41,721 bases of DNA, from NCBI GenBank assembly GCA_964592695.1, contig CAZQFO010000002.1, forward strand, positions 1 to 41,721, in the 5' to 3' direction. Source of the stretch: an uncultured Candidatus Peribacteria bacterium. GTDB taxonomy: Bacteria; Patescibacteriota; Gracilibacteria; UBA4473. The translations under genes and the position numbers were made by a program. A model generated the notes under the pieces. The model had not been told where the DNA came from. It made no database searches and saw only the letters and a program-made list of their open reading frames with translations. Positions 1,410 to 29,681 of this stretch are shown one piece after another (within the stretch, counting starts at the first letter, position 1; each line of letters begins with the position of its first letter).

Positions 1410-1663
1410 TTGTTTGATGTTTGTTGATGCAAGATGGAAGGGAGAGGAAGATTCGAGATTTGAGTCCGGTCTTCAATGCAAGGATGTGGAAATTGCTTGA
1501 AAATATTGGTTGTTTTAAACTAGATAACGCATCTAAAAGACCGGAGTCTATGGTGAAAGCAAAGAGTTGAGCTTGTGTGTTTTGTTTTTTGTTGAAAATC
1601 AGCTTGACAAAATCGAAAACATGGCCATATCAGGCTTATAATTACTTTTTAATTCTTTTAATT

Positions 1664-4003
1664 ATGTCACTTGAAGAATTGCAAACAGCTATGGATTCGT
1701 ATGTTCCTCCAAAAAAAATTAAGGGACCTCTTCGAACAAGAACATCCGACAAGGGAGGATCTATTGATCCCCGTACAGTATCTTATGGATCTCCAACAAT
1801 TCCTGAACATTGGGATTATAAGCCTTCTAGAGATGGAATTATGTATGATAAAAAGCATGAAAATCCTTTTGCAGGAAGGCTAGGATTTGAAACAACTTTA
1901 GGACCTGTTAAGGAAGAACATTTTCGAGATGATGGGACGGTGGATGAGTCGTTTAAACAGGATGTTAATGATTTTCAAAGTGGACACTATACTCCAGCAC
2001 CCGGTGATACTAAGGATGGATCGGATATGAATGACATGCAAGAAAAAGAAGTAGTAGTTGTGGATAAAATTGATAATTGGCGGTATCGAGAAGTGACTCG
2101 TCCTGTGGAATCAAAAAAAGGAGCTGTGATATCATTGTCTAAAGATTTAAAAGAAAGGGTAATGCGAAGAATTCAGGTTGAGAATACAGATGATATATTT
2201 TTGTGGGCAGATCGCGATAATACAATAAATGAGGCTGAATTTAGAGATCTTGCAAGAATGGTTGAGGAATATGAGAATGCGGGATTTAGAAGTGATGAAA
2301 TACAAGATTTAGTCCTTAATCAAAAATTGGAGAATTCTAATTCTGGGAAATTTCAAATGTTGTATTCAGGAGAAGCAGATCCTAGTCGAAAAATAGAAAG
2401 AGGAACTCTTTCATTTTCAGATGATAAAGACCAAAAGGAGGGAAAGTCGCTAAGAAATAAATATGGAAATAGAAACCTTCCTTTTGCGAAAGATGCAGAT
2501 AGAAACCCAATGTTATCTGGTTCAAGTAGACGTATTTCAGAGGAGAAAAAAGTTCGAGTGTTTGAAAATAAGTATTGGAGTTCAGAGGCAGAACGATTGG
2601 ATTTGATTTTGAAAGCGAAAAAGGAAAAAACACGAATTGCTGAAAGAGTTAAATGCTTGGAAGTGTTGTCTCTTTATTGTTTTGAGGATAAAAATGGAAG
2701 ATCTCTTTTGGATCGAGTTATGGCTGGGATAAATACAAATTCTAGTTGGTTCGTTGAGATTATAACAAGCAATGCATTTAGTTCAAAAGAAGCGATGGGA
2801 TATAGCAAGGAAATTCGAGAAGCTCAGTCAGAAATAGATAAATTATGCAAAGTATTGGATAAAATCCAAAATCTTGAAGGAGAAATTGATCCAGATCAAA
2901 CAATTCCAGGACTGTCTGTTTATTCAAAAGACAGGGTAGTTTCAGATCGTCGAAAAGATAATACGCTGAGATTGATCGAGCATAAACATCGAAGAAGCGA
3001 GCGAAAATTAGCTAAGAAAATTCGAAATGATATTATGTGGAGTGTGTTTGATGGAGATGCTGGTAAAGAGGTTGTGTATACAAGCATATTGGATGAGTAT
3101 ATGGCAGATGAGATGATGGAGGAAGTTCCTCATCCTACGATGACCAAAGAGGAGGCAGAATATTATGAAGGATTGGAGGAGCAGGAGAATCAAAGATTTC
3201 AGTACATTTTTGAGGATCAAAGTTTAGAATTAGATGATCATTTCAATCTTGGGGGATCTGTTCAAGAGTATGTAGATGGTTTTTCGCGATGTGATAATTA
3301 TTGGAATTATGATGATTATGATTATTGGGGTGAAGAGTATTGGGAAGATGATCGTGATGAGGGATGTCATGATTACAAGGATTATGATGCTTATGAATAT
3401 TGGGATGATGGTGATCATGATAGTATGAAGACATCAAGCCAGTATTCAGGAGAAACTATGCCAAATTGGAAACAAGCATATGGTGAAGATGAATCTAAAA
3501 GTCCTTTTTCTTACCGTATAAATGAGCGTGTAAATACGACAAAACGCAAAGATAAAAGAGTCTCGATTCCAGTAAGAAGAGCTCGAAAATTAGCCGAATT
3601 GAATACATTTGACGGGAATAATGGGAGAGATAGTGTGTACCTGGCAGAAGAGAAGGAAGCAAGTATGGAGCATCCTACAATGACTGAAACGGAGGCAGTA
3701 TATTATGAAAAATTAGCCGAAAAAGAGGCTAGAGACTTTTATAGGAAAGAGGAGGAGAAAGATAAAAAGAGAGAGAATGAGGAATATTATATTAGAAAAT
3801 TATTTGAAGATGGAGGAACTATGGATGACTATGTCGATGATTATGAAGTAGATTCTTTTTATGCTCTACAAGAATGTCAATATCAAAAAAAGGTAGATGA
3901 ATGTCAGAATCCTCATGATGGCAAAATGGAAGAGCGCCTACTACAAAGGAGGGCTATTCAAAACTTCATGGATAATGTAATGGAAAATCCTCTCACAAGA
4001 TAG
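1664..4003 (+). CDS. Hypothetical acidic protein with internal repeats and a D/Y/W-rich low-complexity segment
   Basis: Uninterrupted ORF of about 780 aa in AT-rich DNA. The ORF track starts at GTG 1577, but the first 29 codons look non-coding and ATG 1664 (MSLEELQ) is the more plausible start. No recognisable domain. A terminator follows at 4041-4067. Confidence 0.75.
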   Translation: MSLEELQTAMDSYVPPKKIKGPLRTRTSDKGGSIDPRTVSYGSPTIPEHWDYKPSRDGIMYDKKHENPFAGRLGFETTLGPVKEEHFRDDGTVDESFKQDVNDFQSGHYTPAPGDTKDGSDMNDMQEKEVVVVDKIDNWRYREVTRPVESKKGAVISLSKDLKERVMRRIQVENTDDIFLWADRDNTINEAEFRDLARMVEEYENAGFRSDEIQDLVLNQKLENSNSGKFQMLYSGEADPSRKIERGTLSFSDDKDQKEGKSLRNKYGNRNLPFAKDADRNPMLSGSSRRISEEKKVRVFENKYWSSEAERLDLILKAKKEKTRIAERVKCLEVLSLYCFEDKNGRSLLDRVMAGINTNSSWFVEIITSNAFSSKEAMGYSKEIREAQSEIDKLCKVLDKIQNLEGEIDPDQTIPGLSVYSKDRVVSDRRKDNTLRLIEHKHRRSERKLAKKIRNDIMWSVFDGDAGKEVVYTSILDEYMADEMMEEVPHPTMTKEEAEYYEGLEEQENQRFQYIFEDQSLELDDHFNLGGSVQEYVDGFSRCDNYWNYDDYDYWGEEYWEDDRDEGCHDYKDYDAYEYWDDGDHDSMKTSSQYSGETMPNWKQAYGEDESKSPFSYRINERVNTTKRKDKRVSIPVRRARKLAELNTFDGNNGRDSVYLAEEKEASMEHPTMTETEAVYYEKLAEKEARDFYRKEEEKDKKRENEEYYIRKLFEDGGTMDDYVDDYEVDSFYALQECQYQKKVDECQNPHDGKMEERLLQRRAIQNFMDNVMENPLTR

Positions 4004-4076: not shown

Positions 4077-4258
4077 GGGATCTCTATCCGGCTCTGCATA
4101 TTTGTTTTTTATATTGTGGTAGAGGTTCGCCACCTTTCTCTTAACTTTAAGAGAAAGGTTTTGATGTTTGAATTATATGGAAACCTCTCTTGTTTTTTTA
4201 AGAGAGGTAGTGAAGAGCTTATGCGATAATTACTCATGTATGAAGAGCTGGAGAGATT
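4077..4258. repeat. Structured repeat copy A, upstream of the DUF559 gene
   Basis: Direct repeat of 4674-4839. Shared blocks: atctctatccggctctgc, ttcgccacctttctctta...aagagaaaggtttt, aacctctctt...aagagaggt, and ...gagc.ggagagatt. Contains two pyrimidine/purine-arm hairpins. Confidence 0.85.
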
Positions 4259-4319
4259 CTTTTTGCAGATATTTTTTGTTTCGCTTATTCTATTAGACAT
4301 GAACAGAGAAGGAATAAAA

Positions 4320-4661
4320 ATGACAGTTCGCGCTCTTCGCAGAAATCAAACTCAAGCCGAGAAAAAATTGTGGGAGCTTTTGCGAAGAAAACAACTGCTT
4401 GGTAAGAAATTTTACAGACAGTATCCGGTGATTTTCAAACAGGAAAAAATTGTCCGCTTTTTTGTAGCGGATTTTTATTGTCGAGAAATCAAATTAGTAG
4501 TTGAAATTGATGGAAAAATTCATGAAGATCAAAAAGAGTATGATGAGATTCGAACGTATATTATGAATGTTTTGGGGATAACTGTTATTCGATTTTCAAA
4601 TAAGGAAGTGCTGGAGCAATCTGATAAAGTTCTAGAAAAGATAAAAACATGTTTTTTGTGA
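4320..4661 (+). CDS. DUF559 / Vsr-like endonuclease-domain protein
   Basis: RALRRNQTQAEKKLWELLR..., FYRQYP..., FVADFYC...LVVEIDG..H, and IRFSNKEV are the typical DUF559 (restriction-endonuclease-like fold) pattern. The ORF track starts at 4236 inside repeat A; ATG 4320 (MTVRAL) or ATG 4299 is more likely. Confidence 0.85.
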   Translation: MTVRALRRNQTQAEKKLWELLRRKQLLGKKFYRQYPVIFKQEKIVRFFVADFYCREIKLVVEIDGKIHEDQKEYDEIRTYIMNVLGITVIRFSNKEVLEQSDKVLEKIKTCFL

Positions 4662-4673
4662 GTGTTTTATTCC

Positions 4674-4839
4674 GGAATCTCTATCCGGCTCTGCGTATTT
4701 AGTTTCCTATTATGTCAGTGATTCGCCACCTTTCTCTTAATACCAAGAGAAAGGTTTTCATATTCGAAAACCTCTCTTTTAAGAGAGGTCGCGAATAGCT
4801 TGCTTTGTAGTTTATTTAACTTGCAGAGCGGGAGAGATT
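4674..4839. repeat. Structured repeat copy B, downstream of the DUF559 gene
   Basis: Direct repeat of 4077-4258. The 5' arm aatctctatccggctctgc pairs with the 3' arm gcagagcgggagagatt and encloses two hairpins (cctttctctt/aagagaaagg and cctctct/agagagg). The hairpins are followed by U-runs on both strands, so they could also act as bidirectional terminators. Confidence 0.85.
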
Positions 4840-8184: not shown

Positions 8185-8533
8185 GATTTTGCGAATAAAG
8201 CGTGTAAATTATCATTTATCGTTTATCATTTATCAATTAATAATACCGAAATTTATGTTTGGTGTGGAGTGATTGGGATTTTTTTCTGATTTTTTTCCTG
8301 ATGTAATTACTCCAATCCCGTACCATGAAAACAACAAGTAAATGCTGTAAATTGGCTCTATAAAAAAGATATGCTAAAATAATAGATCTTCGCCAAGATG
8401 CGATTTTCATTGGACTCCTTGGCTGATAAATCAGCCTTCGTCGTCCATGAAAATCGCAAAAACTACAACTTTAGTTTTTTTTACTGATACGTCATTGGGG
8501 AGTAATTACTTCCTGATTACTTCCTGATTCGGC

Positions 8534-8562
8534 TTGACATTACCACTTCCTTGTGATATATA
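8534..8562 (+). promoter_or_regulatory. Near-consensus sigma70-type promoter for the 246-aa ORF / GHKL gene pair
   Basis: TTGACA (8534-8539), 17-nt spacer ending in TGa, then TATATA (8557-8562). Lies about 100 nt upstream of ATG 8663. Confidence 0.55.
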
Positions 8563-8662
8563 CATTTTAGTTTTAATTCCTCTCAATCTAAAACATAACT
8601 ATCATGCCTTTTGTGGTCAAATCTAATCAAATGGTCATTATTTCGCTTCTAGCACCTAAATT

Positions 8663-9403
8663 ATGAAAAAAGCAAAAAACTTCGCACCAAATAAGGTTAT
8701 AAACCTTAAAGAAAGCCATCAATTACTTGCAGATGTAATGCGAGGTGATGGTGTTGATTTGTATAAACAAAATCCCCATACATATAGAGCGGATATCGTT
8801 ACAACAAAGTCAAGTATTGATTCTGTACTACGAGAGCATTTTGGCAGAAGATTCGATGAGTTAGATTCTCTTTCTCTACAAGAGCTTCAAGATATTCGCA
8901 CATCATTTTTACAGCACTATAAAAAATCCTGTGAAGGCAGTGAAACACTGAAGAAATGGACTCCTCTTAATCAATTAGTTGGATACACTGAAACACTGGT
9001 TGCGAGTGCTTACATGCAATTAAACGCTCAAATAGACAGGGATCTTTCCCGACAAGATGATTCTTCAACCTCAAAAACACCTTTGGAGCATACTCGAATA
9101 CAGATTTTGAATGCCCTGAAAAAGGGAAATCAAGGGAAATCAGATGATGAAATTCAAAAGGAGGTTACCGATTGTGTTACAAAGACCGGAAGAACGTTTG
9201 ATAGAAGCCTGTTTGATCAGTGGAGAACTCTATTCGAGCAGATTAATACCCCTTTACAAGAAAACTACGCAGAACATATGCAGTTTATGAATGTCAATGA
9301 ACAAATTCGAGATCTACGCTTTCGAGAACAAAAACAATCAGAATTAGTATCCTCCCAAAATTTCAGTGTAACGCCTTCACATGAAATGCGGGAAACTGCA
9401 TAA
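8663..9403 (+). CDS. Hypothetical protein (246 aa), upstream partner of the GHKL giant
   Basis: Clean ORF with no recognisable motif. Ends 7 nt before the ATG at 9411 that is in frame with the GHKL gene. Confidence 0.65.
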   Translation: MKKAKNFAPNKVINLKESHQLLADVMRGDGVDLYKQNPHTYRADIVTTKSSIDSVLREHFGRRFDELDSLSLQELQDIRTSFLQHYKKSCEGSETLKKWTPLNQLVGYTETLVASAYMQLNAQIDRDLSRQDDSSTSKTPLEHTRIQILNALKKGNQGKSDDEIQKEVTDCVTKTGRTFDRSLFDQWRTLFEQINTPLQENYAEHMQFMNVNEQIRDLRFREQKQSELVSSQNFSVTPSHEMRETA

Positions 9404-9668
9404 ACACTGGATGAAGAAATTGGATTTTTAGGATTTACATTGGAATTTTGGGAGGATACCAGAATTATTACAAAATCTTGTAGGAACAGCCAAAAGAAAT
9501 TGGAAACCGGATGATTTAGAACATGACATTCACTCGCAATCCGCTGAAGCTAATAGATCTGTTGTAGAACTGATTTGTAATAGTATTGATGCTAATCCAG
9601 ATGAAAATAATAGAGTTGATGTAAATATCCACGAAAGTGGGTATAGCGTTCAGGATTATGGAGGTGGA

Positions 9669-12600
9669 ATGAATCCCTATGTTGTCCTAGAAAAACTAAT
9701 GATTCCAAGAGTTTCTGGAAAAACAGGAAAGGAAACTATAGGGAGATTTGGTGTTGGTTTTTATACCGTTCTCGCCCATCTAAAAAAAGAAAATGACTTT
9801 GTTCGGATTAAGACAAGTGATGGGACCAGAGGACATGTTATCGAATTTCGAATTCATGAAAGATCCGGGGATATTTTTGTTCACACTGAAAGAGATGATA
9901 GCTTGTCTCAAGGAACGAACGTTCAGGTAGAGGCAGAAGATTTTGATGCTACTGATGCAGAAATATTATGCTTGGACTTACTTGAGTGTAATGACAAAAG
10001 TGAAATCATTTTGAATGAGGAGAGGATAAATACTTTGGAAGGATTTGAAACCATTCGGGGTGAAAACACTTCTGTAAAATTTACTCCTGAAACATCGGGG
10101 AAATCCAAAATATCATTACTCATAAATGGAGTTCGTATTGAGCATTTTGAAATTACAGGAGTAAATGTTTGTAGAGAATTAGTTCTTGATTTTCCTCTTG
10201 ACTGTTCACTACCAGAAAACAGGTCAGAGCTTGAAATTGACGAGGTGGCTGTTTCCAGTTTAAGAGAAATGATAGATATCGTCTTGCATGCTGATATTTC
10301 TGATGACAGTAAGGTATCTCTTTGTAATTCTCTTGATCCGCTTTTGAAAGAATTACAGCAACGCTCTCGAATGAGCAGGCAGAAAGACAATCTAAGCACT
10401 TCTTTCTATAACACCATTTCAGATTATTTTGAGAAACAAGGAAAAATTTTTCTTCCCAATGAAAAAGAATATCAGATGTTAGATGTGCCCAATGCCATTT
10501 ATGTGAATTCAAGTGTCTGTAAAACAAATCTGGAAAAAATTCCTGGAGTTGAGAAATGTCACTCGTTTTATTCAAATAAGGGCTATTCTTTATATACTGC
10601 TGATCTTAGAGAAGGTGTGAATCATTTCGTCGCAGAAATAAATAAAGAACGATTATTAATTATCGACAGGGGCGTATACGAAAGACATAGAGACTGTCCA
10701 GCAGCTCTGAATGCATATTTCTCAAGTCTAGATCCCTTAGGAAAAACTTTAGAAATAAACAAAGGAAAAATTATGGAGGATAAATATATACGTACTAGCG
10801 ACATATCTTGGACGGAAGATGATCTCGATGCATTAGATATCAACGAAGAATCTCGCGGAACGGTTTTTATGCGCGCCTCGGAGGAATCACAAAGAATGAT
10901 GATGAGAGAGGTAGCACTTAAGAGAATCGAAGTTGAGGCTATGGATGGAAACGAAATAACGTCAGCAACAGAGCGTAAAATTATTGATGAGGTAAAAACA
11001 ATAATAACTAAGTATGAAACAGAGGAGTGGAATTCATGTTTAAGTGATATCAAAAAGAAACAAAAAGTGAAGATTTTTTATGGTGATCTTGAACTATATT
11101 ATATGTCGGATTCCCATCTAAAGAGTATTGCTGTGCGGAAAAATCCGGAATTTGCACAATTATTTATAGCCTGGAAGCAGAAGCAAAGGTGGCGTGATCA
11201 GAGCCTTTTTCTTTTTATCGATGCACTGTGCAACTTGCACAGTCTTGTCGATATGAAAGATCAATATTCAGAGCAATTATTATTTAATTTTTTGAATTTA
11301 TTTGCAGATATTACTGAGAAAGCAGCAAATAATCATGGCAGAGTGCGACAGTCTTTTTTTGAAGGAACAACCAAAAGGAGGACATTTTTTGAAAGGGTGC
11401 AAAAATCATATATCGAGAAGCTTTGGAAGCTGCAGGATTATGATCTCGAGGAATTTGTTAAGTACCTGACTCCTGAGATACGGAGGTGGAGGAGATATAA
11501 AGAAGATGTTGATATTAATACTCATGATTACTCACACATTCCGCATGAAATGAGAGGTTACGTGGTATACGCTTTTGAGGGCAGAGACTTATTAAGCAGA
11601 AGAAGTTTTGATGAAGCTAGTATACAACTAGATAATTATGAGGAACGAATCACCCTTAGTACATTAGTGCAAGCTAAAAAAGATGCTGAAGGATTTTTTC
11701 AGGATTTTGAAGGAACTCCTGCTGAAATCGTAGAATTTGCTAAAAATTCACAAAGAGGCATTGACCCAAGTAAAGCGATGCGAGATATAATGCACTCAAC
11801 AAATAACCAAATATCAAATAACAACTATCTTTGGCTTCGTGAGTTATTGCAGAATAGTTTGGATGCCGTTAAAGAGCATGCTTTAGATGGAGCAGATGAA
11901 CCACCAGGTATTTCTGTTAATGCTTTTATTCAAAATAAAGAAGACGAAGAAGAATTAATCATTGAAGCGGCAGACCCAATTGGAATGGATATCCAAACCA
12001 TTATCAATTATCTGCTCATTCCAAATGAAAGTAGTAAAAAGGAGAATGAAGAACTTACTGGAAAATTTGGGCAGGGATTCTTTACTGTTTTTGGAAATGC
12101 TAAAGAAGTGCTTATAAAAACATCAAAAGGAGATGGGAGAGTTCAATATATGAAGATTGCCCCAATAAAGGATGCAGAGGGACAAACGCTTGATTTTGAT
12201 GTTGAAATGTCGGAAAAAGGCGAAATGTTTACTGGAACGGTTATACATAAAATTGTTGACACAGATATGCCAGAGGTAGAAGCCGGTTTTTGTAAAGGAG
12301 CAGTAATGAGCTATGGAGGATTAATTGATAGAAATTCCGTTCGTGTTGATTTTGGAGAAACAGAAATCAACACTCCAAAAACGGTACTTGCACAAGCAGA
12401 AATACCATCATTGGGAGGCATTAGAATATTGGATTCAAAAGAAAATGCTATGACTCAAAGTGGTTTGTTTATCAAAATGCTTGATAACGATCTATTAGCC
12501 CATGTACCACCACATCTGAGAAAGGAATTGGGCGATACAAGAATGGTTGTTGATATTCCAAAAGGAATACATCTTGTTAAATCAAGAGGAGACATTGCGA

Positions 12601-13508
12601 GAAAAAAAGAAGTTCTCCCTTTATTACAAGAGCAAATTCCTTCTTTAGTATTACAGGCTTATTTAGAGCTCGTTAAAGGAGGGAAAATTCCAGATTTTGA
12701 TGGTGTTCCATATCAATATTTTGAATTTGAAGAGTATCGTCAAGTTCCTCCTAGAATTAAACAAGATGCAAACAAGATTATTGCAGGAAAAAAGGTTGAT
12801 AGTTATGAATCATACTTACAGGAAAGACGGGATTTAAAACAACTACTGACGCTTGTACCATGTATTTCCGTGGGAGAAGATTTAATTTCTCTTAATGAGC
12901 TAGCGAAAAGGGTAGCCGAAAGCCCAGATTCAATTGATATTAATAGTCTTCCTGAATCATTGAAATGGAAAGTCATGGATGCTCTTCAAAAGAAAGAAAA
13001 GAAGAAGGATTCATCTTCAGACGAAGAAAATGAAGATGTCGCAAAAAGAGTTTGTAATGATCTGCCTGATGATCCCGAATCTAGAGAAAAATTACGCACA
13101 GTCTATGCATTTGATTATCTCGCTCGATCAATTTTTGAATTAATCGGTGCTCAAGAAATTCACCCTCAGTATTATTCTGAATCTCTTACTTACGAGGTCT
13201 GCACTTCCCCGGGAAACAATAAAATAGGCTTCAATCTTTCAAAAATGAAGTCTGTATTAGAAGGGTTAGAAGAAATAATTGAAGAAATGCCTTCAGTAGA
13301 AAGTCCTGAGGCTCAAAGAATCTTGGAGGAAATAATCAAACTTGCTACACATGCAAGACAGCATCATTTAGAAAATACTGATAAAGCAGTATACAACTAT
13401 GAATTTTTTGAGAGACAACGAGTACTTATACAAAGAATGATAGAAAATAGAGAGGTTAATTTTGAACAAATATTTTCTGAAATGTATGAAAAATTTTCGA
13501 GAGCTTAA
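9669..13508 (+). CDS. Giant protein with two Hsp90/sacsin-like GHKL (Bergerat-fold) ATPase modules
   Basis: Module 2: LRELLQNSLDAV (11835-11870), AADPIGMD, GKFGQGFFTVF (about 12060-12092). Module 1: IGRFGVGFYTV (9741-9770), while its N-box ELICNSIDA (9567-9593) and G1 box QDYGGGM lie in the same frame upstream of the track start. The open frame runs from 9432, and an ATG at 9411 is separated from it by a TAG at 9429. Confidence 0.8.
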   Translation: MNPYVVLEKLMIPRVSGKTGKETIGRFGVGFYTVLAHLKKENDFVRIKTSDGTRGHVIEFRIHERSGDIFVHTERDDSLSQGTNVQVEAEDFDATDAEILCLDLLECNDKSEIILNEERINTLEGFETIRGENTSVKFTPETSGKSKISLLINGVRIEHFEITGVNVCRELVLDFPLDCSLPENRSELEIDEVAVSSLREMIDIVLHADISDDSKVSLCNSLDPLLKELQQRSRMSRQKDNLSTSFYNTISDYFEKQGKIFLPNEKEYQMLDVPNAIYVNSSVCKTNLEKIPGVEKCHSFYSNKGYSLYTADLREGVNHFVAEINKERLLIIDRGVYERHRDCPAALNAYFSSLDPLGKTLEINKGKIMEDKYIRTSDISWTEDDLDALDINEESRGTVFMRASEESQRMMMREVALKRIEVEAMDGNEITSATERKIIDEVKTIITKYETEEWNSCLSDIKKKQKVKIFYGDLELYYMSDSHLKSIAVRKNPEFAQLFIAWKQKQRWRDQSLFLFIDALCNLHSLVDMKDQYSEQLLFNFLNLFADITEKAANNHGRVRQSFFEGTTKRRTFFERVQKSYIEKLWKLQDYDLEEFVKYLTPEIRRWRRYKEDVDINTHDYSHIPHEMRGYVVYAFEGRDLLSRRSFDEASIQLDNYEERITLSTLVQAKKDAEGFFQDFEGTPAEIVEFAKNSQRGIDPSKAMRDIMHSTNNQISNNNYLWLRELLQNSLDAVKEHALDGADEPPGISVNAFIQNKEDEEELIIEAADPIGMDIQTIINYLLIPNESSKKENEELTGKFGQGFFTVFGNAKEVLIKTSKGDGRVQYMKIAPIKDAEGQTLDFDVEMSEKGEMFTGTVIHKIVDTDMPEVEAGFCKGAVMSYGGLIDRNSVRVDFGETEINTPKTVLAQAEIPSLGGIRILDSKENAMTQSGLFIKMLDNDLLAHVPPHLRKELGDTRMVVDIPKGIHLVKSRGDIARKKEVLPLLQEQIPSLVLQAYLELVKGGKIPDFDGVPYQYFEFEEYRQVPPRIKQDANKIIAGKKVDSYESYLQERRDLKQLLTLVPCISVGEDLISLNELAKRVAESPDSIDINSLPESLKWKVMDALQKKEKKKDSSSDEENEDVAKRVCNDLPDDPESREKLRTVYAFDYLARSIFELIGAQEIHPQYYSESLTYEVCTSPGNNKIGFNLSKMKSVLEGLEEIIEEMPSVESPEAQRILEEIIKLATHARQHHLENTDKAVYNYEFFERQRVLIQRMIENREVNFEQIFSEMYEKFSRA

Positions 13509-15137: not shown

Positions 15138-18100
15138 TTATTCTTCCCATTTTTCTCCACCTCTTTTTGCTACATAGGCTCTCAAATTTCGTTCAATTCT
15201 ATCAGTGTTTTGAAAAAGTAATTCATCCTCTGCAAAAAATTTAGAAGCGATTTTTTGATTTGGTTTAGAGTCCTCCTCTATTCTTCCTGCTTTCTTTTTT
15301 AACTTTACAAAATCATCTATCAATTCTGAGTTTTCTTTTCCTGCATCTTTAGTAACCTTTTCCATTAGGTCATCTATCCATTCTTTAGATTCTGATGCTT
15401 TAGGAGAATATGGATTTTCTCTATCCCAAGTATTTCCTTCGAAAACTGTAACATTTTGATTTCCTTCTTTATGGTTTCCTGAGAGCACTTGTGATACTGC
15501 ATAACCTGCCTTGAGACGATTTCCAATGTTTATAAGTGTCTTATCTTTCATTTCTTTCCACCCTTTTTTACATTCTGATGGGGCTTTTTTATATTGGCTA
15601 TCTAGATCGTCTAGATAAATAACCATTTGTCGAAAATATAAATCATATCCCCTAAGCATCCGTCTCCAGAAGTCATCTGGATGTTTGCCTACCATCGTGG
15701 AATCAGTAGCTATTTGTTGCATTACGGTTCTATAGTCCCAAACTGCAGCATGCATAGCTCCATCATCGGCATCAGCTTTTCCTTTTGCGCCAACTTGTGA
15801 ACGCCCCGCACGTCCACTAATATGCTCAGAAGCCAGCATTGTGTGATAAAAAAATTTTATTGTTCCTTGTTTGCTTTTAGCGTCTTTAAATTTAAAATCC
15901 GATTCGGTCCCGATTAGTTTTCCCCATGCCATGATATCCTTGTAATTCCATTGACCTTCATGAGATCCGGGAGTTCCTTTGGGGACAATTTTTCCATTTT
16001 TTTTCCATCCGGTAGTGTCACTAAAAAATTCCATTTGTGGAACTTCTCCCAGTAGATCATTTGCAAATCTCTTTAGTATCGAATGAGAAAGAATAGTCTG
16101 ACCTAAAGTGTTTTTCATAGTTATTCCCATAATTAAATAATACCACCTCTTGTCTGGTTGCCCATTCATGCGTCCCTGTTGAAATGATTTTTTTAAAAAA
16201 CATTCATATTTCGCCGGATCTACATTTTTTGTGTCATTTCTTTTCCATCTCTGGAGCATGTCGGTCATGAGCACTTCTCGTCCTCCTTCCATTTGAAGCT
16301 CTTCGAATTCTTTTTCAAATCCATCAATTGCAGAGTTAAGTCCGCTTTTGAAATCATTATCCCAAATCTTGAATATATCACCACTATATGGCCATATACC
16401 TTTACAGGCTTTCATGAGTTTGGATTTCAGCTCAACATCTGTTAGGTTTACATCTTCTTCTATAGAAAAAATTTTACCCCCTGGATAAAGCCGGTTAAAA
16501 ACTTTCCATAGTTCCGGGTCATCCCACGAAAGAAATCCTCTTTTTATCAGTAGATTTATACAGGCTCGTACTTCATCTGCATCATTTATATTTTTTGCTG
16601 CATATAACTTTTCCCTTATGGTCCAACCTTCTAGGTTCGCGTAAGCCTTTTCAAATTCCCCTATACGTTCTTCTTCCGAGCTCTGAGCCATTCGTAAAAA
16701 TTCATTTCCATAAGTACCTTCTCCAAAAATTTTGGACCCAAGTTCTCCTATATTTTTCTCATTCTTTCTTTTTCTTCGTCGTTCCCATATTTCAAATGAT
16801 TGTTTGAGCATTCCCCATACTGATTGGAGTGTATATATTTTCACGGTCCATTTGTTTTTCTTGATTTTTCCGGTTATGGAAAGATTTTCTTTGTTCCATT
16901 TTTCGTTTCCTTCGTTCCAGTCTTTCCAGTCTTTAGTATTTTTGGCTATGACCTCAATAGCTTCCGTTACATTTTTCCAATCCGAAAACTCGTCAATAAG
17001 ACAGGACACAGTCCTCGGGTCGCCTTCTTTGTATTTTTTAATCCATTCAGGAAAAAAATCCGGTTTGCTGTATTTTTCCCAGATTTCTTCAAACCCACCC
17101 TGATAATTCTTGATATCGGCTAGTAACTTTGTATAATAATCTTTTGGAACCCCATATTTAGTATGGAAGTCATCATCATCAAATCGTTCCAAATCTTTTG
17201 TTATACTGTTTTCCAGTTCTGTAATAGTTTTTTTGTATTGATCAAATTTTTCGGTGTAGTCTTTTCTGAGTTCTTCATATTTTTCTTCCGCTTGATCTGT
17301 GTTGTTTGCGCTATCAAAAACACCTAATTTCCTTAAATATTCTAAGTTTTCTGGTTGTTGACGAAATTCATTATGCCAAGCGGTTTTTTCTTGTTGGATA
17401 AATCCTCCTGCAGAATCAAAATCTAAGTAGTTTTGTAAATTATCTAAGTTCTTTACAATGCTTTTTTGGAATTCTTCTGAATCAGTTTCTTCTGACTGAA
17501 TAGTACTATCAATTTCTTCTAGGGTTTTTTCGATTTTTGTTTCAAAAAGCTCCTCTTTAAGTCTTTCGAAATTAATACCAGAATCATTATTGAGAAATTG
17601 CAGATCATAAATTTCTTTTATCTCTGCGATCTGACTCACCAATTTAGGATATAACGCTGTCCAATTATTTTTGAATGTATCAAAATTTTGATTATCAGAC
17701 TCACTTAAACTTTCTTTTAGTGATGACAAAATATAGCTGATTTTTTTCTGTTGATGTGTGGTCTGATTGTTGAGCCATGCAGTCATTTGGTCTATGTCTC
17801 TTATGTCGTCAGTCCAGATACCTATGGCGTCCATATTTTTGGCATTGGTTCCCTCTAATGGTTCTTTGGACTTAACACGAATGCCTAAAGCTTGTTTGGC
17901 TTTTTTATTAACCGCTTTTGCTGTTCGTGCCGAATCAGATTCCAATTGAGCGTATTTATTGTAACGTTCGGCAATTTCTTCTCGAAAAAAAGGCAGTCCC
18001 GGGGAAAAATGTTTACGCATTTGATTCCAGAATTCTGTCTTTTTAGCGACATCTTCTGTGCTTGTTTTTGCATGCAATTTTCCATCTATGATATCAAAGA

Positions 18101-20027
18101 TTTCTTCTCGGAAATGAATAGTTAATCCATTTACGATTTCTTGCTGGATTTGTGGATTTTTAAGGAGATTGTTTGCGTTGTTTTTTACATAGTCTAGCAG
18201 CGATTTTGCCCCTACTTTTTCTTTTATTTTTTTTACCCATTCTTCTGGATTATCCTCATCAAAACTAACGGTTTCTAGTCCGGTTAGTACATGTTTAAAT
18301 TTATCTCGAAGTTCAAATATAGTTAATGTTTCTTCTGAATGAGGGGTATCCTTCGTAATGAAATCTTCACAACACTGAATGTCCCACAATACTTCTAAAT
18401 CACCAGAATGAAGTTGATGATTTGTAATACGTTTTTGTAGTCCTGCTTGATGTGATTTGAGTAATTTGTCGGATACTTCGGGTTGTTCTTTGAAATATTT
18501 AATATCTTCTTCGGCAATTAGTTGTTCTGTGGCTATGTCATCCCATTTTTTATTCAATTCTTCTACTTCTTTTTCCAGAGCTTTCGCTTTTTTTAATGCT
18601 TGATCTCCTTCCGGAGTTTTTTCTGCAAACTTATTCTCATCAAAATTATATCCTAAGTCTGTTAATTTTTGTCTTATAGCAGGCTTTTCGGTATCTTGGA
18701 TTTCTCGTAATCGTTCTTCTATGGGTTTTCGTTTCCAATTCCATTCGAAAAAATCTATTTTAAATTCAGGATTTGGCCAGGTGGCACTTCGTATCTCCAG
18801 GAGAGCATCATACTCCATCTTGGTAAATACTTTTGTTTTGCGTTTGTCGAAATATGCCAGAGCTCGAACGGCATTAGCATGCTTGATCTTTTCGCCTATT
18901 AGTTTTTTTTCTAATTCTATATCATTATCTTCGATAAATGGTAATATCAAATCCCACGTAAGCAATAAATCTACGTGTTGGTCTTGGTTGGTTAGATTTT
19001 CAGCAATTTTTTTAGCGAGAGCTTTTGTGTGTGTATTAATTTCATTTATAAAATGACTGTTTTGCTGATTTGCATCAGGAGATGATTTAAGAATTTTATT
19101 AATTTCCAAAACCTGAAGCATTTCAGCGGTTTTAAATTTATCAGGATTGGAAATGTCGTCTTTCCGTTTTGAATAAAAATTCCCCTGCCATTTGGCAAGT
19201 ATCTCAATAATTAATTTGCAGGTGTTGGATAATTCTGGTTTTTGTGCGAAGTAGTTGTAGAGAGTGCATATTCTGGATATTCCCGATGCAGATAAGTCCG
19301 CGTTATCATTTTTATTATCTAGTATATTTATTATTTTCTTTGTTTCCAGATCAATAAATTCTTCTAGTTTGATAACCGTTTCAGAGGTCAATAGCCCCAT
19401 CAAATTATTCGAAAATTTGACAGCAAACAGTATTCGAGGAGAAAAAACACCGGAAAGACGGCCACTGTTTTGTTCTATTTCGCAATGGTAATTTATGAGT
19501 TCTCGGAATCTATGAATTCTTCCTTCTTGTTCTTTCCCTTGTTTGCCTTCTTCATTTAGAAGTAGTTGGATATGTTTATCCAAAAATTCTACTCCACTGA
19601 CGGAGAAATGTAGAGGATTCCTGAGTATGTGATCAATTTTTGCTCTGTCTTTCTCTTTATTAATAGCTTCATTTACCTTTTCCCATGTATTGTTTTCTTC
19701 TAAGATTTTTTTGAGATTTTCATCGTCATTAGATATCGTGTTTATTAGCTTCTGAGCCCAGACTTTTTCTTCTCGTTTTAGTATGCATTGTACGAGTTTT
19801 CGATAATCATCATTTATACCTAATTTTTCAAAAGAAGATACATGTGCATGCAGCGTGTGCATATCTTCTACGCTAACATCAAGGATTGATTTATTTAGAA
19901 TTTCTTCCAGCTTCTTTTTAATGGATGTTTCTTCTTCAGTAAGCGTAAGCGGTGTGGTAGATTCCACAAAAACCCACCTCCCCTCCCGGGATTCAAAATC
20001 TCGATAGACGTGTGTCAAAAACTTCAT
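15138..20027 (-). CDS. Giant hypothetical protein (1629 aa), K/E/N-rich, no recognisable domain
   Basis: 4.9-kb uninterrupted ORF in stop-rich AT-rich DNA, with its own promoter-like site upstream. No signal peptide or TM segment visible at the N-terminus. Confidence 0.85.
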   Translation of the reverse strand: MKFLTHVYRDFESREGRWVFVESTTPLTLTEEETSIKKKLEEILNKSILDVSVEDMHTLHAHVSSFEKLGINDDYRKLVQCILKREEKVWAQKLINTISNDDENLKKILEENNTWEKVNEAINKEKDRAKIDHILRNPLHFSVSGVEFLDKHIQLLLNEEGKQGKEQEGRIHRFRELINYHCEIEQNSGRLSGVFSPRILFAVKFSNNLMGLLTSETVIKLEEFIDLETKKIINILDNKNDNADLSASGISRICTLYNYFAQKPELSNTCKLIIEILAKWQGNFYSKRKDDISNPDKFKTAEMLQVLEINKILKSSPDANQQNSHFINEINTHTKALAKKIAENLTNQDQHVDLLLTWDLILPFIEDNDIELEKKLIGEKIKHANAVRALAYFDKRKTKVFTKMEYDALLEIRSATWPNPEFKIDFFEWNWKRKPIEERLREIQDTEKPAIRQKLTDLGYNFDENKFAEKTPEGDQALKKAKALEKEVEELNKKWDDIATEQLIAEEDIKYFKEQPEVSDKLLKSHQAGLQKRITNHQLHSGDLEVLWDIQCCEDFITKDTPHSEETLTIFELRDKFKHVLTGLETVSFDEDNPEEWVKKIKEKVGAKSLLDYVKNNANNLLKNPQIQQEIVNGLTIHFREEIFDIIDGKLHAKTSTEDVAKKTEFWNQMRKHFSPGLPFFREEIAERYNKYAQLESDSARTAKAVNKKAKQALGIRVKSKEPLEGTNAKNMDAIGIWTDDIRDIDQMTAWLNNQTTHQQKKISYILSSLKESLSESDNQNFDTFKNNWTALYPKLVSQIAEIKEIYDLQFLNNDSGINFERLKEELFETKIEKTLEEIDSTIQSEETDSEEFQKSIVKNLDNLQNYLDFDSAGGFIQQEKTAWHNEFRQQPENLEYLRKLGVFDSANNTDQAEEKYEELRKDYTEKFDQYKKTITELENSITKDLERFDDDDFHTKYGVPKDYYTKLLADIKNYQGGFEEIWEKYSKPDFFPEWIKKYKEGDPRTVSCLIDEFSDWKNVTEAIEVIAKNTKDWKDWNEGNEKWNKENLSITGKIKKNKWTVKIYTLQSVWGMLKQSFEIWERRRKRKNEKNIGELGSKIFGEGTYGNEFLRMAQSSEEERIGEFEKAYANLEGWTIREKLYAAKNINDADEVRACINLLIKRGFLSWDDPELWKVFNRLYPGGKIFSIEEDVNLTDVELKSKLMKACKGIWPYSGDIFKIWDNDFKSGLNSAIDGFEKEFEELQMEGGREVLMTDMLQRWKRNDTKNVDPAKYECFLKKSFQQGRMNGQPDKRWYYLIMGITMKNTLGQTILSHSILKRFANDLLGEVPQMEFFSDTTGWKKNGKIVPKGTPGSHEGQWNYKDIMAWGKLIGTESDFKFKDAKSKQGTIKFFYHTMLASEHISGRAGRSQVGAKGKADADDGAMHAAVWDYRTVMQQIATDSTMVGKHPDDFWRRMLRGYDLYFRQMVIYLDDLDSQYKKAPSECKKGWKEMKDKTLINIGNRLKAGYAVSQVLSGNHKEGNQNVTVFEGNTWDRENPYSPKASESKEWIDDLMEKVTKDAGKENSELIDDFVKLKKKAGRIEEDSKPNQKIASKFFAEDELLFQNTDRIERNLRAYVAKRGGEKWEE

Positions 20028-20813: not shown

Positions 20814-23009
20814 TTATGAATTACCGACTTTTGCCTCTCTAGGAATAAACTGATCATAGAAGTTCATCCATCTTCTTACATTTTCTCTAAATTCCAAATC
20901 AGGGATTGTTTTTCCTTTTTCCGTTTTGCACTGATTGCTAAAGGAGTTCAGCCATCTTCTTACTTTTTCTCCAAATTTCAATTTAGTAGGGATTGTTTTT
21001 CCTTTTTCTGTTTTGCACTGCCTGTTTACGAATTCAACTCCTCTCTCCCGTGTGGAAAGAAATCTTTCTTCATAATCATCCTTCCCCCATTTTGATACAT
21101 ATTCAGCTCTTTCTGGGAACCTTCCTTCTATATCTTTCATACAGATTGCCAACGCCCAATCAGAATCCATGGAATCTTTTTCTCGTTCAGACAATCCATA
21201 GGTACTCGACATACGCTTAAGTTTTTCTTTTGTATCAAAGGCTGTTGTCAAGTCTACTGGCTCTATCATTTCTGCACTTCTATATATCTTTCGCCCTTCA
21301 AAAATGATGTTAGCTACAACAGCATTAGCCCAGTAGACGTTAACATTACACTCTCTTATCATTTCTCGTAATCGTTCATATTCCGATATAAACTCCGAAG
21401 GAGCTGCGATATTCGCTACTTCAACCTCTAGACTTTCTTTAACATTTTTTGTTATCAGCTCTACACATCTATCCCTAAGAACTCCTTTTCCATGACTGTC
21501 CAAATTCTCAAAGACCTCATAAACTTGTTCCATCGATTCAGCTAGTCTTTTTTTGTCTTCCTCTCTGTTCATGTCGATGGGCTCCCTAAACAATCTTTCA
21601 ACAAATTTTGATAAATGTTCCATGATGATCGGTTGAAGATGTCTTTTTTCAGTAGATGTATTTGGATCTCCTAAGAACTCCAACAGTCCTGCTGCATTGA
21701 GGATTGCAATTTCTTGAGTTGGATCGTTTGTTATTTGTTCTACAATCTCTTCTACATTATTTGATGTCATTCCAGCTTTAGATAAGTTGGTTCTGATTTC
21801 TTCTATTAGTACTACTTTGTCTTCCTCAACTTCATGATCACGTAATATTTCCAAAACCAATATTGCAGCTATTAAGCTTTCTTTTTCTTGGCCTTCTTTT
21901 GTGCTTGCTTCTTCTCCAATAAGCGTATCCAACGCTTTTCCAGACAATCCCAAACTTCTTGTTATTTTTTTAATATCTTTTCTAAAATAATAAGGCCGTG
22001 AAGTTTTTTTGATTACTTCTTTTTTCAGATCACAAAACATTCGTCTTGCCGTCAACAATTGAGCCTTTTCTTCAAGTAAATCGAAGTCTTCCCTTGCTTC
22101 TTTGGCTTCTGTAGTATCTCCTGATTGTTCTAAATGAAATCGTACTTTTTCAATGTGTTCAGGACATAACATATAATCATGATCTTTTTTTTCGTCTGGT
22201 ATTCTTCCTCCTAAGGGAATTGCTCTCTCAATGAAGTCTAATTGTTTTTTTGCTTCTTGGAGATGAGAACCTTGTTTTATTTCTTCAAATTGATCTGCGG
22301 TAATGTCTAAAGCCTCTATCCCTACTCCCGCATGATTAATATTTTTTGTGATTTCATCATAAGTTCCACCTGTAATATCGTCAAAATATAATCCACCTAG
22401 TTCTCTGCTCATTCCTGCAAATTCTTGACCTTCAAGAAATCCAGTATCTCCAAAAGTTAGTCCTATTCCTTCTGCTCCATTTCTGAGAACATCCAAATAG
22501 CCATTAGCTACGGAAATATAGGCCTTTCTTTCGATTCCTCTTAACCCTTTTTCATTAACGCCTAATGTCTCAACAACTGCTCCAGCCTCCTTCAATTCCT
22601 TCCTTATTTTTTCAGATAATTCCTTTATGCTTTTTTCTCCTTGTATCCTGTCAGTATTTATTCCGTGAGGATGATTAATAATACTCCTTAAAACTTCTAG
22701 CGATTCAGCAGCCTCGAAAATTATGAAGACTTCATTTTCACTATGCCCTAAAAGTCTAGAAGCAACTTCATAGAGTTTTCGAGAGTTTGAATAATTTTGA
22801 TAACCAATAGGACCTGTCATACTTGGTTTTTTTCCTTTTCTTCCTCGTTTTGCTTTTTTATTGGCATGCATAACTACCTCAAGGGCTCTCCTCCTGTATA
22901 GGAAATCGGTAGATTTAAACCTTTTCAACCCTTCTCCGTCACTGAGAAGGCCTTCCTCTTGTATCTTCTGAATAAGCTCTGCATTTGTTGTGAAAAATTC
23001 TTGTTTCAT
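20814..23009 (-). CDS. Hypothetical protein (731 aa) with a C-terminal tandem repeat
   Basis: Long clean ORF. Basic patch KKAKRGRKGKKPS near the N-terminus. The C-terminus carries two copies of QCKTEKGKTIP...VRRW[LM]N, encoded by a tandem DNA repeat. No recognisable catalytic domain. Confidence 0.8.
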   Translation of the reverse strand: MKQEFFTTNAELIQKIQEEGLLSDGEGLKRFKSTDFLYRRRALEVVMHANKKAKRGRKGKKPSMTGPIGYQNYSNSRKLYEVASRLLGHSENEVFIIFEAAESLEVLRSIINHPHGINTDRIQGEKSIKELSEKIRKELKEAGAVVETLGVNEKGLRGIERKAYISVANGYLDVLRNGAEGIGLTFGDTGFLEGQEFAGMSRELGGLYFDDITGGTYDEITKNINHAGVGIEALDITADQFEEIKQGSHLQEAKKQLDFIERAIPLGGRIPDEKKDHDYMLCPEHIEKVRFHLEQSGDTTEAKEAREDFDLLEEKAQLLTARRMFCDLKKEVIKKTSRPYYFRKDIKKITRSLGLSGKALDTLIGEEASTKEGQEKESLIAAILVLEILRDHEVEEDKVVLIEEIRTNLSKAGMTSNNVEEIVEQITNDPTQEIAILNAAGLLEFLGDPNTSTEKRHLQPIIMEHLSKFVERLFREPIDMNREEDKKRLAESMEQVYEVFENLDSHGKGVLRDRCVELITKNVKESLEVEVANIAAPSEFISEYERLREMIRECNVNVYWANAVVANIIFEGRKIYRSAEMIEPVDLTTAFDTKEKLKRMSSTYGLSEREKDSMDSDWALAICMKDIEGRFPERAEYVSKWGKDDYEERFLSTRERGVEFVNRQCKTEKGKTIPTKLKFGEKVRRWLNSFSNQCKTEKGKTIPDLEFRENVRRWMNFYDQFIPREAKVGNS
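20862..21020. repeat. Tandem duplication of about 85 bp inside the 3' end of the 731-aa gene
   Basis: The block gttca.ccatcttcttac.ttttctc.aaatt...gggattgtttttcctttttc.gttttgcactg occurs at 20862-20933 and again at 20946-21020. Confidence 0.8.
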
Positions 23010-28861: not shown

Positions 28862-29644
28862 TTTATTTTGGGTTAGTTTTTATTTTTTGTAATCAAATTA
28901 GTTTTTGCAAAATAATTAGTCAACAAAAAAACCATCGTCAGATTATTCCCCTTAGATGGTTTTTTGTATAGTTTGTGTTTTTGTTCTTTTTATCGATTTA
29001 TTTTTTTTGTTTCTTTCGTTATGAATTATGTTACTAATTCACAATAGCTTCTGTTTTTTTAATTGAATGAGCTTATCCAATTCTAACACCCCATGAACCC
29101 AATAGGACCACTAGATTGTTAATAGAAATAAGTGGGTTACCCTTATTAAGGGCTTGGGAAAAAATAACCTTTCCAATTTCATCATAGCTTCACATCATCT
29201 AAATTTCTAAAAAAGTCTCAACATATCCCGATATCTTTCGATTTTTTATAAATCTATCTGATGCAAATCTATGCGAACTTGAAAACTTATTTTTTCCCAA
29301 GCCCTAATTACTTTTCTATTCACTTTTGGCATCCTTTATATAGTAATTTCGGATGAGAAGTTTTCTTTTTTTGGTACTTCTTTTCAATGTATTTCTACGA
29401 TTTACTTACCTCTAGGTACTTCATGTCATTAAAGTTTTCTAGATTTTTCCTTTTTTTTTCTGATTAAATCAGTTTTTTTTGACATAGGGAAAGATTTCTT
29501 CTTTCAATAGATTTAATATTTTTCATGTATTAAACCAGAAACAAATTTTGAACAAACTGTAAAAGAACGAACACTTTAATCAATTAGAACTAGCTAACTG
29601 ATTAAAGTATTATAACACATCAAAAATTAAAACACAAGACTTTT

Positions 29645-29672
29645 TTGCACTTTTTTTAAAATACTGTATAAA
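29645..29672 (+). promoter_or_regulatory. Promoter-like element immediately upstream of tilS
   Basis: TTGCAC (29645-29650), 16-nt spacer, TATAAA (29667-29672). ATG at 29682 implies a leaderless or very short-leader transcript. Confidence 0.4.
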
Positions 29673-29681
29673 TCTATCTAG

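Follow-up and report, generated by a model that had tools for sequence, protein, structure and literature searches.

The stretch of DNA analysed here (the window, 41,721 nucleotides from an uncultured Candidatus Peribacteria bacterium) carries on its + strand, at positions 8534-13508, two open reading frames (ORFs) of 246 aa (8663-9403) and 1,279 aa (9669-13508), the first of which ends inside a 113-bp insert (9347-9459) that is bounded by 16-bp terminal inverted repeats (TIRs) and flanked by 8-bp direct repeats. The original prediction took the two ORFs for separate genes, i.e. a small ORFan and a giant protein with two Hsp90/sacsin-like GHKL ATPase modules, and proposed that they form an uncharacterised two-gene module. 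Our analysis leads to a different gene model, in which the interval very probably represents one gene for a 1,574-residue giant tandem Hsp90-like protein, broken after codon 228 by an insert that resembles a miniature inverted-repeat transposable element (MITE).

The reading frames themselves carry much of the argument. The 1,279-aa ORF starts (MNPYVV...) downstream of motifs I and II of its first GHKL unit, and does not itself contain the two full motif sets that had been attributed to it. Those two motifs, ELICNSIDA and QDYGGGM, are found in the upstream translation of the same frame, within an open stretch that begins at 9432, directly after a TAG (9429-9431), and is devoid of ATG, GTG and TTG. 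An ATG at 9411, 7 nt after the 246-aa ORF, had been noted as lying in the GHKL frame, but translation from it reaches this TAG after six codons. Joining 8663-9346 to 9468-13508, i.e. removing in silico 121 bp that comprise the 113-bp insert and one copy of the repeated 8-mer CAGAATTA, yields 4,725 nt or 1,574 codons whose sole stop is the terminal one. The first part (8663-9346, + strand) supplies codons 1-228, encoding a family-specific N-terminal domain, and is the real part of the 246-aa ORF; the second (9468-13508, + strand) supplies codons 229-1574 and the terminal TAA, and offers its first ATG, GTG or TTG at 9669. The empty site so reconstructed (...CAATCAGAATTATTACAAAAT...) is recognised at the protein level only: the restored junction, ...QSEL|LQNLVGT, aligns without gaps to 10 full-length homologs, which read ...EQKRSxxIQNLVG... 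at this point, P0008 even having ...SELL... there, whilst in the window as it stands ...EQKQSEL and LQNLVGT lie in different frames, the latter 121 nt further on. An alternative genetic code was considered as a cause of the break and rejected: it is TAA and TAG that block the frame, and ORFs called in the window terminate at each of the three stop codons, the genome using the standard code.

Homology of the small ORF points in the same direction. Far from being an ORFan, it matches residues 1-234 of the homolog P0004 with 49% identity (E 1e-69) and residues 1-240 of P0010 with 40% identity (E 3e-51), and the proteins most closely related to the large ORF are single chains of 1,660-1,870 aa. 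An exhaustive search of 1.84 billion representative proteins with residues 1-228 returned nine matches. One is the ORF of the window itself; six are giants (1,367-1,822 aa) in which the match lies at the N-terminus; and two are short incomplete calls, one a fragment of 103 aa and the other (P0021, 417 aa) running on into the first GHKL module. No free-standing homolog of the N-domain was found among these 1.84 billion proteins, and in every full-length homolog the N-domain and GHKL parts are fused. Accordingly, since the homologs begin with a counterpart of the 246-aa ORF and removal of 121 bp restores an open frame, we regard the gene as single. P0021 itself is normal through the N-domain and the GHKL motifs of unit 1 and then continues into a tail that appears to be out of frame (…HERTGDVLRIWSETILWNRAPKCRWKRK…); either disruption of a second copy or an error in sequencing may account for this.

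The idea of a conserved partnership between an independent small ORFan and a giant GHKL gene, acting in defence, as a chaperone or in host interaction, had its origin in two ORFs on the same strand, lying 7 nt apart in the first reading, with a promoter-like site upstream. It is refuted by the observations above, and we attach practically no probability to it: the small ORF is homologous to the giants' own N-terminus, which is always fused; the ATG at 9411 leads nowhere beyond six codons; and the two ORFs part precisely where the insert, with its TIRs and target-site duplication, lies. No giant is accompanied by a separate counterpart of the 246-aa protein; that counterpart is in every case a domain of the giant itself, and no neighbouring gene is conserved at the five homolog loci inspected.

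Anatomy of the insert

The insert is absent from all homologs. Its TIRs are perfect over 16 of 16 positions (GTATCCTCCCAAAATT at 9347-9362 and AATTTTGGGAGGATAC at 9444-9459), and imperfect arms, 78% complementary, extend to 41 nt. On either side lies a copy of the 8-bp direct repeat CAGAATTA (left 9339-9346, right 9460-9467, spacing 121), as expected of a target-site duplication. As RNA the insert forms a single extended hairpin (-47.5 kcal/mol, z = -8.5) that none of 200 shuffled sequences equals. Stops occur in all three + frames, at 9369, 9382, 9401, 9412 and 9429, and the insertion shifts the reading frame by +1 (121 = 3n+1). The tail of the 246-aa ORF (VSSQNFSVTPSHEMRETA followed by TAA, 9347-9403, + strand) is encoded by the insert and has no counterpart in the homologs, such that the 246-aa product consists of 228 native residues and 18 insert-encoded ones.

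In possessing TIRs, a target-site duplication, a strong hairpin, a small size (113 bp) and no coding capacity, the insert looks like a MITE. Bacterial MITEs include Correia elements, RUP and ERIC, and the Rickettsia palindromic elements are found in genes. With the former the insert shares a length in the range of ~100-150 bp, the lack of coding function, the TIRs, the target-site duplication and the hairpin; with the latter it shares a location within a protein-coding gene, but, unlike them, it is out of frame and has stops in all frames, and therefore breaks the gene rather than adding a peptide segment. It further differs from known MITEs in that it is a single copy, with no parent insertion sequence (IS), in the collections searched. 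Some search results weigh against the assignment. No second copy was found in the 41.7-kb window (which is the extent of the source genome's own sequence that the copy search covered) when the TIR was allowed up to 3 mismatches, nor by blastn-short against all fetched loci, and a paired-TIR pattern recovered neither a second copy nor a parent IS with the same ends from 185,579 GTDB representative genomes or from JGI metagenome contigs. Eight matches to this pattern share with the insert only the searched 11-12 nt and are otherwise unrelated hairpins. As neither a second copy nor a parent IS was found, the designation as a MITE derives from anatomy. Rfam gave no family at its gathering score anywhere in the window, the only matches over the insert being sub-threshold ones to hairpins of plant miRNA precursors, and no tRNAs were detected in the window. 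Literature on MITEs in Patescibacteria, and on the defence protein Tiamat discussed below, yielded nothing informative.

As a separate observation, the short motif CCTCCCAAAAT / ATTTTGGGAGG occurs three times within ~250 bp as hairpin ends in L009 (7551-7812) and L002 (3759-3978), which are unrelated metagenome and Lachnospiraceae contigs; the hairpin interior in these cases is unlike that of the window's insert.

Two further explanations of the insert require consideration. The first is an artefact of assembly or sequencing, i.e. a chimeric or palindromic hairpin in a gene that is really intact. In its favour, the sequence was assembled from a metagenome, hairpins can arise as artefacts, and only one copy is known. 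However, such an event would not give rise to an exact 8-bp target duplication in combination with perfect 16-bp TIRs of foreign sequence, the arms are not copied from the flanking sequence, and the same calls (a 246-aa protein and a truncated downstream one) stand in three records, from NCBI, JGI/IMG and ENA. We consider this explanation highly improbable.

The second is that the interruption is overcome and the 1,574-aa protein restored, either by ribosomes hopping from the TTA at 9344-9346 to the TTA at 9465-9467 or by precise excision of the insert in part of the population. In bacteriophage T4 (gene 60) and in Magnusiomyces mitochondria ('byp' elements), bypassing relies on matched codons and a hairpin, with an additional Shine-Dalgarno (SD)-like element in gene 60. 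The 8-bp duplication here would provide identical take-off and landing codons, the hairpin begins immediately 3' of the take-off codon, the right repeat contains an SD-like GGGAGGA (9450-9456) 8 nt ahead of the landing codon, and the downstream frame is intact. Nevertheless, the gap is 121 nt compared with 50 nt in gene 60, no stop follows directly after the take-off codon (the next in-frame stop being 18 codons on), and no second such element, in the window or the collections, suggests an adapted system. Bypassing or excision is thus as remote a prospect as an artefact, although, if true, it would stand as the first example on a bacterial chromosome of translational bypassing borne by a mobile element, and in a Patescibacteria genome.

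The insertion reading remains the most probable by a wide measure, and the course of events it implies can be sketched. A hairpin insert with 16-bp TIRs would have entered after codon 228 and duplicated 8 bp of its target; through the frame shift and the stops in the insert the upstream part ends as a product of 246 aa, and a downstream product, if started at ATG 9669, would lack motifs I and II of unit 1.

Tandem Hsp90-like units of the protein family

The claim of two GHKL motif sets was confirmed, all six motifs lying at the predicted places and in one frame. In unit 1 these are ELICNSIDA (9567-9593), QDYGGGM (9651-9671) and IGRFGVGFYTV (9738-9770), contributing E262, N266 and D269 (motif I), D291, G293 and G295 (motif II) and G320, G323 and G325 (motif III). 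In unit 2 they are LRELLQNSLDAV (11835-11870), AADPIGMD (11967-11990) and GKFGQGFFTVF (12060-12092), of which motifs I and III are normal and motif II is one residue short (D1064-P-I-G-M, hereafter DPxGM). The motif I-III residues of both units are conserved family-wide. Neither unit has lost the catalytic Glu, Mg-binding Asn or GxxGxG, and the middle-like domain that follows in each contains a conserved SR motif. A further motif, [IL]KTS.GDG, had been assigned to both modules; it is present in module 2, whereas module 1 has IKTSDGTRG.

With the 1,358-aa translation of 9432-13505 as query, Pfam HATPase_c_3 matches two stretches (E 1.6e-13, 51.3 bits against a cutoff of 25), as does the NCBIfam model NF047352 (sacsin N-terminal ATP-binding-like), which passes its cutoff of 50 by a narrow margin at 54 bits; both models hit both modules, and HATPase_c_3 matches 11 of the 12 family members. 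Hsp90/HtpG equivalog models remain far below cutoff (NF010683, 36.5 bits against 455; NF003555, 27.6 against 371), and Pfam SACS (PF25794) is likewise below, at 14 bits against 32.8, with a best E of 0.028 among the 12 members. When a profile of the family was compared with the sequences of the PDB, only N-domains of the Hsp90 family were matched, and weakly (E 0.03-0.1).

The predicted internal duplication is borne out and is longer than had been claimed. BLASTP between the modules finds 41% identity over 54 aa (E 7e-7), and hhalign aligns residues 243-583 with residues 1000-1373 over 312 columns (probability 96.7%, E 4e-10), so that the duplicated unit is ~340 residues long and extends well past the nucleotide-binding domain, to a D[FI]P...SR motif that both copies have. 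On the basis of profiles, hhalign and a structural model, unit 1 (residues 243-583, 9510-10532, + strand) comprises a GHKL N-domain and a beta-rich middle-like domain with DFPLDCSLPENRSEL (from 10188), and unit 2 (residues 1000-1373, 11781-12902, + strand) contains motif I, the shortened motif II and motif III, with DIPKGIHLVKSRGDI from 12552. The complete architecture is an N-terminal domain of ~230 aa, unit 1 (N and middle-like), a variable helical linker, unit 2 (N, middle and C-like) and a C-terminal helix with HExxH.

AlphaFold models built from 12-sequence alignments gave a mean predicted local distance difference test (pLDDT) of 69 for residues 229-972, rising to ~85-90 over unit 1, and of 75 for residues 905-1574. 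Foldseek placed unit 1 on the N and middle (M) domains of TRAP1 and GRP94 in the PDB (E 3e-11, 375-460 columns), the only entries of its top 50 outside the Hsp90 family being the ATPase domain of a phage topoisomerase II (rank 28) and MORC3 (rank 49). Unit 2 with the C-terminus aligned along full-length Hsp90/TRAP1 (E 1.5e-13, ~700 columns), with top hits drawn entirely from the Hsp90 family. Among viral models the best fold matches were giant-virus histidine-kinase-like ATPases and phage rIIA proteins. Taken with the NF047352 score, these matches support the Hsp90/sacsin-like resemblance that had been proposed.

GHKL ATPases act through nucleotide-dependent pairing of two N-domains. Intact relatives of the broken gene may therefore operate as ATP-driven clamps of the Hsp90/sacsin type, and the presence of two units in one chain suggests that the two GHKL N-domains could close as an intramolecular pseudo-dimer, possibly an asymmetric one given the shortened DPxGM motif II of unit 2. 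Caution towards this model is warranted on two counts: the clamp or pseudo-dimer is deduced from similarity of fold, and the TM-scores to Hsp90 are low (0.25-0.48, for models of medium confidence), owing to differing domain orientations and to the 12 sequences behind the models.

The C-terminal helix carries HERQH in all 10 homologs that reach this region, and HARQH (13350-13364, + strand) in the window, where it lies in a confidently predicted helix; nearby, the window has VYNYE in place of the homologs' (W)THN(D). A zinc-protease domain was considered for the HExxH helix and rejected, there being no supporting match to a protease family or fold.

The family is rare. A profile search among 5.8 billion proteins gave 22 clusters at 90% identity, 783-2,590 aa in length (most 1,400-1,950 aa), of which five are named: one from Patescibacteria, one from Candidatus Omnitrophica and three from Elusimicrobia/Elusimicrobiota. 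Its records are labelled only 'ATP-binding protein' or 'hypothetical'. Across the five homolog loci inspected there is no shared neighbour or conserved partner, the surroundings varying from NusA, NusB and RNase III, aspartyl-tRNA synthetase or glutaredoxin to a helix-turn-helix protein, an integrase, a resolvase, an IS110 transposase or Fic. The polynucleotide phosphorylase of the window is closest to named Peregrinibacteria and Gracilibacteria sequences (59-63% identity).

Against this background we asked whether the family may act against phage or in other conflicts, as a single-gene Tiamat (TmtA) or a MORC-type GHKL protein. PADLOC returns weak TmtA matches (4.5e-6 for P0004 and 4.5e-4 for the window), the TmtA models, at 1,486-1,782 positions, are likewise long, the rare family has a scattered distribution over three phyla, its genomic position varies, with integrase, resolvase, IS110 transposase or Fic near some copies, and phage rIIA proteins appear among the viral fold matches. 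Tiamat resembles the family in being a very large standalone protein with an N-terminal GHKL domain of the HATPase_c_3 type. However, the matches score only 16-22.6 bits and cover positions 46-148 of 1,486, i.e. ~100 positions that constitute the GHKL core, which was all that PADLOC matched, and P0008 and P0012 give no match. Profile searches detected no nuclease or other effector domain, PHROGs gave no match, no defence-island context is seen at the five homolog loci, some of which lie in plain housekeeping surroundings, and the best structural matches are Hsp90-family chaperones over N, M and in part C domains and not MORC or MutL. A conflict role for the family is accordingly rather unlikely; for the gene in the window, a TmtA match that is weak and confined to the GHKL region leaves a role in defence neither shown nor excluded.

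Comparison with known proteins places the family closest, in architecture, to sacsin (SACS), an animal protein in which a giant chain carries three tandem Hsp90-like units. As in sacsin and the NF047352 proteins, tandem Hsp90-like ATPase units occur in a giant single chain, with a motif I of the ELxxNxxDA type. In contrast to sacsin, the family has two units and not three, fails to reach the Pfam SACS cutoff, shows no UBL, DnaJ or HEPN domain in profile searches, has its own ~230-aa N-terminal domain and C-terminal HExxH helix, and is prokaryotic and rare. The Hsp90 family (HtpG, TRAP1, GRP94, Hsp82) provides the best matches among solved structures, by sequence as well as by fold, unit 1 corresponding to N+M and unit 2 to N+M+C, with a flexible lid predicted from low pLDDT. 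Differences from Hsp90 lie in the two units within one chain, as opposed to a homodimer of one, in a sequence identity of 13-17%, in the DPxGM of unit 2, and in scores far below the Hsp90 family cutoffs. This is a rare, uncharacterised tandem Hsp90-like family, recognisable as a kind of protein, with no indication of a new kind of system.

State of the interrupted copy

Downstream of the insert no ATG, GTG or TTG precedes motif I, and unit 1 therefore cannot be intact if translated from a canonical start. The only plausible re-start is ATG 9669, which is located after motifs I and II of unit 1 and has a GGAGG (9660-9664) 4 nt ahead of it; these bases are also the Gly-Gly-Gly codons of motif II. 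Gene callers place the downstream start at 9669 (JGI, 1279 aa) or at 9699 (NCBI/ENA, 1269 aa). We infer that the full-length protein is not made in the source genome.

All 1,346 downstream codons are open. The window deviates at 41 of 350 columns that are invariant in the other nine close homologs, compared with 36-48 for P0007, P0008 and P0010 in a leave-one-out count, and because these deviations are on a par with those of other deep branches there is no sign of long decay. The count shows no excess indicative of relaxed selection over equally deep homologs, and hence provides no dating evidence either way. The frame data would suggest that the insertion is recent or that the 3' part is still in use. 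A long intact downstream frame would equally fit continued use as a split protein, or by reading across the insert, and to that extent weakens the description of the gene as inactivated.

Such a split but functional state, in which the 246-aa N-domain and the 1,279-aa product from ATG 9669 cooperate, the insertion having in effect generated a two-gene module, is compatible with the open downstream codons, the GGAGG ahead of ATG 9669, the lack of excess changes at invariant positions relative to other deep branches, and a unit 2 that is untouched. On the other hand, the product from 9669 would lack the motif I helix (with the catalytic Glu and the Mg-binding Asn) and the DxGxG, leaving the ATPase of unit 1 not intact; the GGAGG is accounted for by the conserved glycine codons; no other family member is split in this manner; and two of the 41 window-specific changes, both in the C-terminal HExxH region (E1524A and H1537Y), occur in this copy only. 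We regard this state as unlikely, and retain a gene interrupted by a MITE-like insert as the preferred interpretation.

Upstream of the gene, a near-consensus promoter had been predicted. The site (8534-8562, + strand) does possess a -35 TTGACA (8534-8539), a 17-nt spacer and a TGa followed by TATATA (8557-8562), but it is unlisted by a consensus scan because the last base of its -10 hexamer is A and not T; it is suggestive only, and we term it promoter-like. The region before it (8300-8530) is rich in repeats, with a tandem 11-mer TTACTTCCTGA present twice (8506-8529) directly before TTGACA, a 14-nt inverted pair (8300-8313 and 8499-8512) and a hairpin with 29-nt arms (8399-8458), which are possible operator sites.

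Elsewhere in the window, a second hairpin element (29144-29310) lies in an AT-rich intergenic gap (28862-29681), with 35-nt arms that are 83% complementary (TTAAGGGCTTGGGAAAAAATAA... and ...TTATTTTTTCCCAAGCCCTAA) and 97 nt apart; a further MITE-like element and a regulatory structure are both conceivable. A small gene of the endonuclease-like DUF559 family (4236-4661) has on either side one of two near-identical 28-nt palindromes (ACCTTTCTCTTAA...TTAAGAGAAAGGT, at 4132-4159 and 4728-4755), an arrangement that looks like a small mobile or hairpin-bounded cassette. Three more large ORFs have no Pfam family on record, at 15138-20027 (1,629 aa), 20814-23009 (731 aa) and 1577-4003 (808 aa), the first of which is one gene downstream, past a Memo-AMMECR1 gene, on the opposite strand.

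Significance

The main value of these results is a correction: the 'module' of an ORFan and a giant gene is an artefact of annotating a gene that a small insertion has broken, and identical split calls are carried by three public assemblies. The event itself is an ordinary one, a small transposon-like insertion, in a protein of an unusual but already recognisable kind, and offers a clean, datable example, from a Patescibacteria genome, of a coding gene that has received a MITE-type insertion. The named members of the family come from lineages known almost only through metagenome assemblies. With two Hsp90-like N+M units per chain, in the manner of animal sacsin, the family could serve as a tractable prokaryotic model for cooperation between tandem units.

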